Assembly: GCA_037386265.1 (NCBI GenBank)
Contig: JARRMG010000011.1
Span: 1-26,195 of the forward strand
Reading direction: 5' to 3'
DNA: 26,195 bases
From: Nitrosopumilaceae archaeon
Lineage (GTDB): Archaea > Thermoproteota > Nitrososphaeria > Nitrososphaerales > Nitrosopumilaceae
The notes under the pieces: model-generated
Seen by the model: the letters and a program-made list of their open reading frames with translations, nothing else
What the model was told of the DNA's origin: nothing
The model's database searches: none
Program-made: the position numbers and the translations under genes
Shown: positions 7,402 through 19,643 of the stretch, in pieces
How the letters are laid out: each line of letters starts with the position of its first letter
Numbering within the stretch: the stretch's first letter is position 1

Positions 7402-7611
7402 TCAAGTAGACTCCAAGAATTCAGTGGAATTTTTTGTCATCTTTTTTTCATTCTTAAAGTGGCCTTGTAATTGAAAATAGATCACACTTGCCTGAATCTT
7501 TGATATTCCAAATCTTTCTTGTAAATATTCAATCATGGTAATTTCATTCATGATTTTACTCCCATTTGATGAATCTTGAAAGTTATTAGTAAGCACAGTT
7601 AAGAATTTCAT
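7402..7611 (-). CDS. 69-aa hypothetical protein, first gene of an operator-controlled operon
   Basis: ORF track; ATG lies 20 nt after the TAAATA box of the operator-TATA module at 7632-7658. Confidence 0.55.
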   Translation of the reverse strand: MKFLTVLTNNFQDSSNGSKIMNEITMIEYLQERFGISKIQASVIYFQLQGHFKNEKKMTKNSTEFLEST

Positions 7612-17438: not shown

Positions 17439-17465
17439 TTATTATACTTCGATTAACTTTGTTAA
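17439..17465 (-). promoter_or_regulatory. Operator-TATA module 2
   Basis: TTAACTTTGTTAA at 17453-17465, 8-bp spacer, TAATAA (minus) at 17439-17444; 25 nt to the DUF1059 TTG. Confidence 0.7.
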
Positions 17466-17490
17466 GTCTAACTTAACAAATTAAAATTTA

Positions 17491-17600
17491 ATGCAGAAGC
17501 AATTTTAGAGATTTGAGGCTATTCTGTCCAAAAGTACATGAAACATGGACAGACTGAATTAGGAACCTTTTTTCTCAAGATGCACAGCATGCTTCTGCAT
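17491..17600 (-). ncRNA. Candidate structured RNA A (110 nt) closed by ATGCAGAAGCA/TGCTTCTGCAT; contains a 13-aa micro-ORF
   Basis: 11-bp terminal inverted repeat (17491-17501 / 17590-17600), inner TTGAG/CTCAA and TCTGTCCA/TGGACAGA (17523-17530 / 17546-17553) stems. Starts 21 nt after the TATA of module 3. Micro-ORF MQKHAVHLEKKGS at 17559-17600. Confidence 0.55.
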
Positions 17601-17621
17601 AGATAACCATTAATTTTTTTA

Positions 17622-17648
17622 TATTTAGATAATGCTTAACTTTGTTAT
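17622..17648 (-). promoter_or_regulatory. Operator-TATA module 3
   Basis: TTAACTTTGTTAT at 17636-17648, 8-bp spacer, TAAATA (minus) at 17622-17627. Confidence 0.7.
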
Positions 17649-17675
17649 GTTAGGAGTTTTTCGATTTAACCCAAA

Positions 17676-17840
17676 TTAACTTTCTCGTTTAGGTTTTGAA
17701 TGAGCCTTTATCATGTGTTTTTTTGTTCTTTCAGGATCGGCAAATTCCATTTTACATATTTTGCATTCGTTAGTGAATTTTTGATCTCGTTTGAAAATAT
17801 TTTTTACCAGACTTTTTGTAGATGATATTTTTTGTTTCAT
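17676..17840 (-). CDS. 54-aa C2H2 zinc-finger protein (not in ORF track)
   Basis: Manual translation MKQKISSTKSLVKNIFKRDQKFTNECKICKMEFADPERTKKHMIKAHSKPKRES*, with C-x2-C-x3-F-x8-H-x4-H. Confidence 0.8.
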   Translation of the reverse strand: MKQKISSTKSLVKNIFKRDQKFTNECKICKMEFADPERTKKHMIKAHSKPKRES

Positions 17841-17861
17841 ATACTAGCAGCAAATCTTTGA

Positions 17862-17888
17862 TTATAAGGTATTGCTTAACAATGTTAA
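17862..17888 (-). promoter_or_regulatory. Operator-TATA module 4
   Basis: TTAACAATGTTAA at 17876-17888, 8-bp spacer, TTATAA at 17862-17867; 21 nt to the ATG at 17840. Confidence 0.75.
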
Positions 17889-17944
17889 TCATCTAAAAAT
17901 CTACATTCATAATAGTTAAAGAAGCATCACAATAAGTACCTTTA

Positions 17945-18280
17945 TTGGCTGATTTTAGAAAATATAGGGATAGAATATACATTGTAAAGGACATTATCCT
18001 TACTCTTTCAGAATATGGCCAGCTTAACCAAACTTCCCTTTTTAGTTTTTGTGGATTGAACATATCAAAACATAAAGGAATTTTAGATAATCTTGAAGAA
18101 AATGAGATGATCCAGAGTGAGGAAGTTTTGGAAGGAAAACGAAAGATAACATTATTCAGGGCAACTCAAAAGGGAAAGGATTTTTGCAATCAGATAATAG
18201 AACCTTATGAAAAATTGTTTCCAAGAAAAGAAAAATCCTCAGATTCTTCACATAACTTAAAATTTCTACTAATCATCTAG
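17945..18280 (+). CDS. Winged-helix DNA-binding protein
   Basis: YRDRIYIVKDII..L...GQLNQTSLFSFCGLN...ILDNLEENEMI...FRATQKGKDF is an archaeal wHTH pattern. Confidence 0.8.
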   Translation: MADFRKYRDRIYIVKDIILTLSEYGQLNQTSLFSFCGLNISKHKGILDNLEENEMIQSEEVLEGKRKITLFRATQKGKDFCNQIIEPYEKLFPRKEKSSDSSHNLKFLLII

Positions 18281-18637
18281 ATGGAATTTCTTAGCGATGG
18301 CTTCATCAAGACTATCTCTTTTCTCTAAATAATCACAATATCTTTTATTCCATGAGTTTAGGGACTGGAATTGTCTCAAGCCTGCCACCAGCCAAATTCC
18401 AGAGGTAATTATGACCATTGTCAAAAGAATAATCAGCATAAAACCAAATTCATTTTCATTTTCAATTAAAAGTAAAAATTTGGGATGTGTAATCAGGTAG
18501 GAAGAAATTCCAATTGCAAATGGAGCTAATATGAGGGCCGACAAGGAAACGCCCAACATTATACCTTTAATGTGTTGGATTTTTTCAATGAAACTATCCA
18601 TAGAACTGAGAATATCATTGGATTCTTGTTCAGGCAT
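18269..18637 (-). CDS. Two-TM membrane protein
   Basis: 122 aa with two hydrophobic helices and a charged C-terminal helix. Confidence 0.7.
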   Translation of the reverse strand: MPEQESNDILSSMDSFIEKIQHIKGIMLGVSLSALILAPFAIGISSYLITHPKFLLLIENENEFGFMLIILLTMVIITSGIWLVAGLRQFQSLNSWNKRYCDYLEKRDSLDEAIAKKFHLDD

Positions 18638-18750
18638 ACCTAATCCTTTTTAGTAGAGGTATAAAATCAGTTCTTTTCGAGTCTGAATAATCTAGTGAAA
18701 ATTTGAATTTCTGTATTCTTTGCATTCTGCATAGATTTCTGGGGTTCAGG

Positions 18751-18791
18751 TATTTACTTGATGCTTAACAATGTTAATTCAATCTTTTTAG
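18751..18791. promoter_or_regulatory. Operator-TATA module 5 (apparently bidirectional)
   Basis: TTAACAATGTTAA at 18765-18777. Minus side: 8 bp to TAAATA (18751-18756), then ATGCAGAATGCA at 18732. Plus side: 8 bp to a weaker TTTTAG (18786-18791), then 21 nt to the ATG at 18813. Confidence 0.65.
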
Positions 18792-18812
18792 TGTCAAAAT
18801 GGATTATTGATT

Positions 18813-18917
18813 ATGAGTAAGAAAGAAAAAGAAGAGGAAGAAGATCTTGCCGCTAAAAAGAATGATGATTGGTGGCGTTTGGAAAAATCTCAAATAGGTA
18901 GGAGAAAATTCGCTTAA
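18813..18917 (+). CDS. 34-aa charged microprotein (not in ORF track)
   Basis: MSKKEKEEEEDLAAKKNDDWWRLEKSQIGRRKFA*. Contains an AGGAG SD-like site for the next gene, which starts 1 nt after its stop. Confidence 0.6.
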   Translation: MSKKEKEEEEDLAAKKNDDWWRLEKSQIGRRKFA

Positions 18918-18918
18918 A

Positions 18919-19116
18919 ATGGGCTATAATTGCCATGGAGTATGTGAATTTTACAAAACTACTAGAATACCCACCTCAAAAAAATATCAAAGTGGTCAAA
19001 AAAGATGTTCACTATGTGATGTTTTTCTTGCAACTTTGAATCTCAGATGTCCATGCTGCAATTCAAAACTGAGATCAAAATCAAGAAAAAATAAAAGAGA
19101 TTTATTCTATTATTGA
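18919..19116 (+). CDS. 65-aa Cys-rich zinc-binding protein
   Basis: CHGVC...CSLC...CPCC followed by a basic tail (LRSKSRKNKR). Confidence 0.75.
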   Translation: MGYNCHGVCEFYKTTRIPTSKKYQSGQKRCSLCDVFLATLNLRCPCCNSKLRSKSRKNKRDLFYY

Positions 19117-19124
19117 GTCTCAAG

Positions 19125-19151
19125 TTAACAATGTTAAGCATGGCCTAAATA
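19125..19151 (+). promoter_or_regulatory. Operator-TATA module 6
   Basis: TTAACAATGTTAA at 19125-19137, 8-bp spacer, TAAATA at 19146-19151; 22 nt to ATGCAGAAGCA. Confidence 0.75.
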
Positions 19152-19173
19152 TCTCAATTCCTAAAAATTTTTG

Positions 19174-19291
19174 ATGCAGAAGCAATCTACTCCAAAAGGA
19201 AAAATGAAAAGCTTGGATGTAAATTCGTCCTTTACAAGTTCTCATTATATGCCTTAGACATAACTATATTTCCTAGAATCTGCTTCTGCAT
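19174..19291 (+). ncRNA. Candidate structured RNA B (118 nt) closed by ATGCAGAAGCA/TGCTTCTGCAT; contains a 27-aa micro-ORF
   Basis: Same 11-bp terminal arms as element A (19174-19184 / 19281-19291); inner AGGAAA/TTTCCT (19197-19202 / 19269-19274), TGTAAA/TTTACA (19218-19223 / 19231-19236) and TATG/CATA stems. Micro-ORF MQKQSTPKGKMKSLDVNSSFTSSHYMP at 19174-19257. Confidence 0.55.
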
Positions 19292-19314
19292 TATTATTTA
19301 ATTAGAGAAACAAG

Positions 19315-19341
19315 TTACCATTGTTAATCATGCCCTAAATA
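19315..19341 (+). promoter_or_regulatory. Operator-TATA module 7
   Basis: TTACCATTGTTAA at 19315-19327 (1 mismatch), 8-bp spacer, TAAATA at 19336-19341. Near-duplicate of module 6 (caagttaacaatgttaagcatggcctaaata vs caagttaccattgttaatcatgccctaaata). Confidence 0.7.
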
Positions 19342-19342
19342 A

Positions 19343-19615
19343 TCGGAATCAAATATAATTTATTCAGGTAATTCACCTTCGTTAACGGTTAAAAATGGAA
19401 ATCTAGTACAAATTCACCTAATTAATGAAGAAAAAAATGAAGCCTCAACAAAGTCAAAACATAATCTCAACATTGATGAATTTAATGTGCATACCGGAGA
19501 CCTAGGATATTTCCAAACAAAATCAATAACATTTCTCGCCGATAAAAATGGTACCTTTGAATACTATTGTTCTATACACCCCGAAATGAAAGGAATTCTA
19601 ACTGTAGAACCCTAA
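19343..19615 (+). pseudogene. Cupredoxin (type-1 copper) domain lacking start codon and signal peptide
   Basis: The open frame reads ...SPSLTVKNGNLVQIHLINEEK...KHNLNIDEFNVHT...TFLADKNGTFEYYCSIHPEMKGILTVEP*, with His...Cys-x2-His-x2-Met ligands. No ATG/GTG/TTG occurs before the first His ligand. Confidence 0.75.
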
Positions 19616-19643
19616 TCTAATTTTTCATAATAGAAAAAGAAAG

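Follow-up and report, generated by a model that had tools for sequence, protein, structure and literature searches.

Why should two short segments of one archaeal contig carry identical ends that are able to pair with each other? The window analysed here, the whole 26,195-nt contig JARRMG010000011.1 of an ammonia-oxidising Nitrosopumilaceae archaeon, is the entire contig C11 of a 1.34-Mb metagenome-assembled genome (MAG; 74% complete, 35% GC), and an earlier note, made from the letters alone, had singled out in it two elements, A and B, as a candidate new structured RNA family. We conclude that A and B are probably paralogues, two genes for small structured non-coding RNAs (ncRNAs) of a Nitrosopumilaceae family that had not been catalogued before (Table 1); the proposal of a new family is upheld by its occurrence in four genera, a conserved promoter, a fixed orientation, compensatory base changes and the absence of an Rfam match. 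Direct inspection of the sequence agrees that both elements end in the same 11-nt arms, ATGCAGAAGCA at 17491-17501 and 19174-19184 and TGCTTCTGCAT at 17590-17600 and 19281-19291, all of them exact. With up to one mismatch the 11-mer occurs five times in the window against 0.75 expected, a count that 0 of 100 shuffles reach, and elsewhere in the MAG the exact 11-mer recurs only three more times, as unpaired singletons within coding sequence.

All four strand readings of A and B fold better than shuffles (z -3.4 to -4.1), and because the two arms within each element are reverse complements of each other, folding is unable to assign a strand. The strand was assigned from a promoter module that sits on one side of each element and begins with a palindrome of the form TTAAC-N3-GTTAA. 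CTAAATA lies 22 nt from the ATG in B and 21 nt from it in A, whose ATG is at 17600 (minus), as expected from the earlier observation that both elements begin 21-22 nt past a TAAATA box. Throughout the family the module reads (T/A)TAACA(A/T)TGTTAAG, a short spacer, CTAAATA and a further ~22 nt; it is present in 37 of 37 copies compared and in all four further copies from a covariance-model search, always on the same strand as the 5'-proximal ACUCC motif. Orientation relative to the promoter is the same in every copy examined, 41 genomic and ~26 metagenomic. The TATA box is centred ~25 nt 5' of the AUG, and given standard archaeal promoter geometry, which was used to place the start site, transcription is expected to begin at the first bases of the element. 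Each element would form an independent transcription unit whose operator palindrome abuts the BRE/TATA region (BRE, B recognition element), with a start predicted at or beside the A of AUGCAGAAGC and an end predicted just past the complementary GCUUCUGCAU, often on a T-run.

The predicted 3' end bears on a first alternative. About half of the 37 copies have at least four T within 12 nt past P1, the stem formed by the two arms, which offers weak support for termination there, and every element stands in tandem, 20-60 nt 5' of another promoter module on the same strand. The tandem arrangement, and the copies that have no such T-run, would suit a cis-acting structured leader, in which read-through gives the downstream gene (DUF1059 after A, cupredoxin after B) a long regulatory 5' untranslated region of the riboswitch or attenuator kind. 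We consider this quite improbable because the downstream gene varies by lineage (DUF1059, cupredoxin or C2H2 zinc finger) and has its own complete operator and TATA box, and because P1 defines the 3' end of the element in all copies.

Evidence for a stand-alone RNA comes from its fold. Single-sequence folds of 33 copies share an architecture of a 10-11 bp P1, a short P2, a 5'-side CUCCAA bulge, P3 (GGAAAA.../...UUUUCC), a variable hairpin and a conserved stretch, in elements of about 100-130 nt. Pairs were counted in model-based alignments of 38, later 51 sequences; in the latter, standard pairs fill 93.2% of pair cells, compared with 85.6% in a column-shuffle control (0 of 500 as high as observed) and 40-53% when the 3' partners were slid. 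Over both alignments these controls range over 85-86% and, for slides of 1-3 columns, 39-53%. Changes on both sides of a pair are seen at 8 of 8 pairs in P3, 3 of 3 in P4 and 2-3 of 6 in P2. The sequence of P1 is almost fixed: its rare changes (A7G, A8G and C10U) stand opposite U or G, so that a wobble pair (G.U or U.G) results. Genome G013 has the single truly compensatory change, C10U together with G to A, and the exceptions are one mismatch and one bulge. Because G.U tolerance in P1 is confined to the sense strand, selection appears to act on RNA rather than on duplex DNA. The conserved unpaired motifs are ACUCCAA and UUUCAU..CUGCC..AAGACA. The conserved fold and the compensatory changes that mark structured ncRNAs in general are thus both present, and the assignment of the family to the small structured RNA genes is well supported by these comparisons of sequence.

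Table 1. Elements A and B, their promoters and motifs, and the conserved neighbouring genes.
Feature	Position	Strand	Description
Element A	17491-17600	minus	110-nt divergent paralogue; same P1 as B
Element B	19174-19291	plus	118-nt canonical member; covariance model R1, 57 bits, E 4e-11
B layout, 5' to 3'			P1, P2, ACUCCAA bulge, P3, variable hairpin, UUUCAU/CUGCC/AAGACA core
B promoter	19125-19151	plus	palindrome TTAACAATGTTAA 19125-19137; spacer gcatggc (7 nt); CTAAATA 19145-19151
B P1 5' arm AUGCAGAAGCA	19174-19184	plus	partner 19281-19291; 98-99% of cells paired; sequence almost invariant
B P1 3' arm UGCUUCUGCAU	19281-19291	plus	T-rich tract next
B P2	19186-19189 with 19274-19277	plus	
B unpaired ACUCCAA motif	19189-19195	plus	P2-P3 interval; nearly invariant in family
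B P3	19198-19205 with 19266-19273	plus	
B core motif GUUCUCAUUAUAUGCCUUAGACA	19238-19260	plus	local form of consensus yUAG-UUUUCAUUU-n-CUGCC-UAAGACA
A promoter	17622-17648	minus	palindrome ATAACAAAGTTAA 17636-17648; spacer gcattat (7 nt); CTAAATA 17622-17628
A central hairpin	17523-17553	minus	loop shows UGUUUCAUGUAC (GUUUCAU)
DUF1059 protein, 54 aa			conserved neighbour in 22 genomes
C2H2 zinc-finger protein, 54-60 aa			conserved neighbour in 21 genomes
Two-transmembrane (2-TM) membrane protein, ~122 aa			conserved neighbour in 21 genomes
Winged helix-turn-helix (wHTH) protein, 111 aa			HTH_45 in Pfam, with a weak match to the Sso10a family; conserved neighbour in 19 genomes
Zn-ribbon protein, ~65 aa	18919-19116		window gene; conserved neighbour in 16 genomes

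In a DNA search of relatives, syntenic copies of the whole region at 17.2-19.7 kb turned up in three congeneric species, at 92%, 95% and 73% identity, and, at 72%, in one case from another genus. Orthologues of B in G005, G009 and G013 are 92-95% and about 73% identical to it, and both elements are kept in the syntenic relatives, the exception being G009, whose contig begins after A. The bare pattern ATGCAGAAG-N80-110-CTTCTGCAT was searched in 401 genomes of the family and occurs in 31 of them, spread over 4 of 27 genera, compared with no match for the reversed pattern; Nitrosarchaeum is one of the four, and the carriers include Nitrosarchaeum sp. LAS73 and Nitrosarchaeum sp. nzgw9. The covariance model (R1), seeded by seven B-type copies and searched in relatives, recovers the pattern copies and adds copies with slightly altered arms. 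In genome G118 it has a second, weak match (24 bits, E 0.004) at L054:1243-1364 (+), ~140 nt from the main element, which may be a degenerate or divergent extra copy. A metagenome scan that asked for the operator and TACTCC at the right distance, and left the arms free, gave 37 matches, ~26 of them true elements, and every one of these has an AUGCAG(A/G)(A/G)GC arm with its partner; since the scan placed no condition on the arms, the invariance of P1 is no search artefact. A pattern scan of genome contigs was too loose and returned mostly chance matches. Genomes carry 1-3 copies, two in the present case. Within the genus of the window 4 of 19 species have the element, and because the species without it include seven that are at least 90% complete, we regard it as accessory.

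This patchy spread and low copy number, together with perfect 11-bp terminal inverted repeats of the kind that define miniature inverted-repeat transposable elements (MITEs), could also be explained at the level of DNA, by a MITE-like remnant, an invertible segment or a pair of inverted repeats that binds a protein, and one metagenome copy breaks off in mid-element. We consider this most improbable. The earlier note had held that a MITE with target-site duplications would tell against an RNA family, but no such duplication is found at A or B and their flanks share no direct repeat. Copies are few, share one promoter context, follow the divergence of their hosts and are mostly syntenic, rather than near-identical and dispersed; their single orientation gives no sign of inversion; no recombinase or transposase is among the conserved neighbours; and the internal helices covary, while the changes in P1 that only create wobble pairs are asymmetric between strands. 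No family member was found in IMG/VR either; the 71 pattern matches there lie in unrelated coding sequences that differ in GC content and have neither the promoter nor the motifs, and viral carriage was rejected. The interrupted copy (L188:2371-2540, Ga0210019_1012194) is of B type and intact to ~position 55, after which it gives way to unrelated, apparently coding sequence; the break may be a mobile-element insertion into the RNA gene.

Element A keeps P1 and the promoter but is without ACUCCAA. The earlier note was right about the shared arms, whereas its description of the interiors as dissimilar did not wholly hold: both elements present UUUCA(U) in a loop that is either apical or large, and R1, although its seed was all of B type, detects A with 24.7 bits (E 0.003) and the A copy of G013 with 39 bits. 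Among five A-type sequences from three lineages the stem of the central hairpin is rebuilt by compensatory changes, from GUCCA/UGGAC to GUCCG/CGGAC in G013 and to UUCCAA/UUGGAA in L214. A two-state fold had also been suggested for A, and the local ATGCA...TGCAT partner on which it relied does exist, but it is not conserved in more distant A orthologues.

The earlier note had left a choice between ncRNAs and leaderless mini-mRNAs, and the present comparisons favour the former. A mini-mRNA would use the 5' AUG as a real start, gated by pairing with the 3' end in the manner of a switch or thermometer, and its output would be a short MQK... peptide or else translation in itself. All copies have the AUG where the transcript is predicted to start, invariably paired, promoters of sister genes in the same regulon drive apparently leaderless open reading frames (ORFs) at equal spacing, AUG-initiated ORFs have a median of 23 codons compared with 12 in mononucleotide shuffles, and the core reads ..FHLLP.. 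in about half of the copies. The last of these follows from the conservation of the core nucleotides, and the probability left to a micro-ORF is small. The ORFs span 8-35 codons, and six copies have no stop inside the element. Among 23 non-redundant copies the median position of the first stop is codon 23 in frame 0, 20 in frame 1 and 18 in frame 2, with 29, 28 and 37 stops in total, so that frame 0 has no advantage in openness over the other two. Of the copies, 30 have ACUCC in frame 2, 19 in frame 0 and 2 in frame 1; UUUCAU is spread over three frames (26, 15 and 10 copies), and the lengths of indels separating P1 from ACUCC are not divisible by three. Given motifs in different frames and a frame 0 of ordinary openness, we consider coding unlikely. 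Neither frame-specific conservation nor a conserved peptide was found: the peptides diverge past MQK, those of A and B are unrelated beyond it, as noted earlier, and a peptide conserved where the stem is broken, which would have spoken for coding, was looked for and not seen. Coding would also leave the covariation of P3 unexplained. We therefore give the mini-mRNA little credence, and note that the RNA family identifies intergenic stretches in which gene callers could mistakenly predict MQK... micro-ORFs.

Comparison with catalogued RNAs was negative throughout. No Rfam 15 model matched any part of the window at gathering thresholds, where a match would have refuted the proposal of the earlier note, and with E up to 10 there was only noise (mir-737, wrong-strand snoR113 and DGCR5, at 17-21 bits against cut-offs of 47-60). 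A scan for tRNA and tmRNA found none, and literature searches covering Nitrosopumilus small RNAs (sRNAs) or ncRNAs, transcription start sites, TATA boxes and palindromes, DUF1059 and the literal motifs gave no account of the element. The family is new to Rfam and to the searchable literature. A C/D box sRNA was rejected, as the consensus has no RUGAUGA or CUGA box, P1 is fully Watson-Crick and the sole Rfam match of that class scores 17 bits on the antisense strand. A retron ncRNA was likewise rejected, with no reverse transcriptase (RT) in Pfam scans of the window ORFs or in the conserved neighbour sets.

Several observations limit how far the case for a discrete, regulatory RNA can be taken. 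Four sequencing runs of unknown kind contain B, in contigs of 150-250 nt at a depth of 2-3 over 18848-19627, whose ends do not match the predicted RNA ends, and no RNA run is listed for the 2.5-kb locus. The covariance-model alignment is fitted to the model, so that the pair counts lean towards it, and the shuffle control overstates significance because many of the sequences are related. In P1 the sequence itself is kept in place of covariation, a constraint beyond what a purely structural stem requires. When the start regions of the five conserved neighbours were tested for duplexes with the RNA, the values stayed at background. For the 5' loop region and the 2-TM gene, which has a long leader, the mean z was -1.1 (cognate -9.0 compared with non-cognate -8.2 kcal/mol); for the core and the same gene it was 0.07, and the core was at background with the other four neighbours as well. 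Long-window RNAduplex runs gave no informative signal and a genome-wide antisense BLAST for targets gave noise; conserved target complementarity, as expected of a base-pairing sRNA or a type I antitoxin-like RNA, was not found for the five neighbours.

Within these bounds a function can be proposed for the structured RNA. It would be made together with its regulon when the transcription factor of that regulon acts, and would fold into a rod of an invariant 10-11 bp P1, P2, a 6-7 nt ACUCCAA bulge and a covarying P3, with an inner domain that displays the UUUCAU-containing loop and CUGCC..AAGACA. The functional surfaces are likely to be the unpaired motifs and the P1 of invariant sequence, and we infer a regulon-embedded, trans-acting structured sRNA, a riboregulator that would act by way of two conserved single-stranded motifs. 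One possibility is pairing of the motifs with mRNAs: ACUCC is similar to the core of the anti-Shine-Dalgarno sequence and UUUCAU is the complement of AUGAAA starts, which are common in leaderless genes here, and base-pairing at translation starts is plausible for that reason. Alternatively, the motifs and P1 might be recognised by a protein, perhaps a co-regulated one; a sequence-conserved stem beside a freely covarying P3 is more typical of a protein-recognised helix, and candidates for the partner are the small proteins of the same regulon (Zn-finger, Zn-ribbon and wHTH). A base-pairing regulator and a protein-binding or ribonucleoprotein (RNP) RNA are, in our judgement, both tentative and roughly as likely as each other, and a mechanism of some other kind is slightly less likely. 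More speculatively, the 5' AUG paired to a 3' CAU, the ACUCC bulge, the UUUCAU loop and the mostly leaderless mRNAs could point to a regulator of translation initiation, a decoy or switch for initiating ribosomes, or else to the RNA subunit of a small RNP that controls the regulon post-transcriptionally and for which the co-regulated C2H2 or Zn-ribbon proteins could supply the protein part. We think this unlikely; if true, it would represent a new class of archaeal riboregulator.

The regulon itself is visible in the surrounding genes. To identify neighbours, the ORFs of the 3-kb loci that surround the elements were compared all against all and assigned to families, and the element usually lies within a cluster encoding the DUF1059, C2H2, 2-TM, wHTH and Zn-ribbon proteins; PADLOC matched no defence-system model to the six cluster proteins. 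Six operator palindromes crowd 17453-19327 of the window, with only a handful in the rest of the genome, and in five complete genomes 15 of 21 exact palindromes lie within ~2 kb of an element. Because the operator palindromes cluster at the locus, we count the RNA gene among the core of a compact regulon that is probably autoregulated. Relative to the BRE/TATA the palindrome is immediately upstream, a position more typical of archaeal activators than of repressors, and by analogy the operator may be activator-like. Wherever it lies 7-8 nt 5' of a TATA box it defines a small regulon, at 17453-19327 and 7646 and on contigs C25, C46, C125, C165, C175 and C266; the operator also precedes two paralogous ~135-aa proteins (MPLIFEQKN...), two paralogous ~148-aa proteins, a second C2H2 zinc finger, a Zn-dependent alcohol dehydrogenase-like gene and a 69-aa ORF at 7402-7611.

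Other features of the cluster were observed alongside. The 2-TM gene (ORF 18269-18637) has a leader at 18638-18756 (-) of ~95-110 nt with a strong GGAG-type Shine-Dalgarno sequence behind the operator promoter; it is kept in most lineages examined and is unusual, as the sister genes appear leaderless, and its start ATGCAGAATGCA is shared by the closest relatives only. A third ATGCAGAA start, at ~18731 (minus), might have been a partner in trans for the 3' arm but was rejected as a family feature, because it is confined to the closest relatives (G005, with GTGCAGAA in G009) and is missing from G013 and the other genera. At 17915-17945 (+) the wHTH mRNA has a predicted 5' end that reads AAGAAGCA, equal to the inner P1 5' arm, in the window, G005 and G013 and not in G021 or G071, the other genera among the leaders listed; the likeness may reflect duplication of the promoter module within the genus. 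Directly 5' of the Zn-ribbon gene a 34-aa ORF (...DWWRLEKSQIGRRKFA) at 18813-18917 (+), below the reach of the 50-aa ORF scan, is present in at least nine genomes. Behind the sixth operator module the cupredoxin gene (19315-19620; break 19362/19363) is without its 5' part. Exactly at this break G005, G009 and G013 have 233-258 extra bases, and run contigs of this population continue at 19363 with GCATAAGAAAAAAAAGG..., fitting the MHKKKK N-terminus of G013. Since relatives and run contigs hold the missing part, the MAG has a ~235-bp deletion or assembly collapse here, with intact alleles coexisting.

Ammonia-oxidising archaea are among the most abundant microbes on Earth, and to our knowledge their regulatory RNAs are almost unknown and no genetic manipulation is yet available for them. 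A delimited, promoter-defined RNA gene with a clear consensus, tied to a regulon of small metal- and nucleic-acid-binding proteins, offers a testable entry to post-transcriptional regulation in these organisms and a ready candidate for a new Rfam family. A sequence-invariant closing stem that starts with AUG is unusual for a structured RNA and calls for explanation.

Known systems resemble the family in different respects. In retron msr-msd ncRNAs the transcript is closed by pairing of inverted repeats at its ends, as terminal inverted repeats would close the predicted transcript here, but the present RNA is smaller, has no RT gene in or near its cluster and has no Rfam match. MITEs and invertible promoters share the short segment between perfect inverted repeats; in contrast, the family has no target-site duplication and combines one orientation, synteny, covarying helices and a dedicated promoter. 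In Y RNA and 6S-type RNAs a sequence-conserved terminal stem is a protein-binding site, and the family is like them in its ~100 nt, in ends that form a long sequence-conserved stem and in its internal loops; it differs in having no Ro/TROVE or other known partner gene near the element and no Y_RNA or 6S match in Rfam. Trans-acting archaeal sRNAs under the control of transcription factors, such as the nitrogen-regulated sRNA154 of Methanosarcina mazei and the zinc-related sRNA479 of Haloferax volcanii, are stand-alone genes with their own regulated promoters, set in a regulon and bearing seed-like single-stranded motifs; the family matches them in each of these features but is unrelated to them in sequence or Rfam assignment, belongs to another taxon and is distinguished by an invariant closing stem that starts with AUG.

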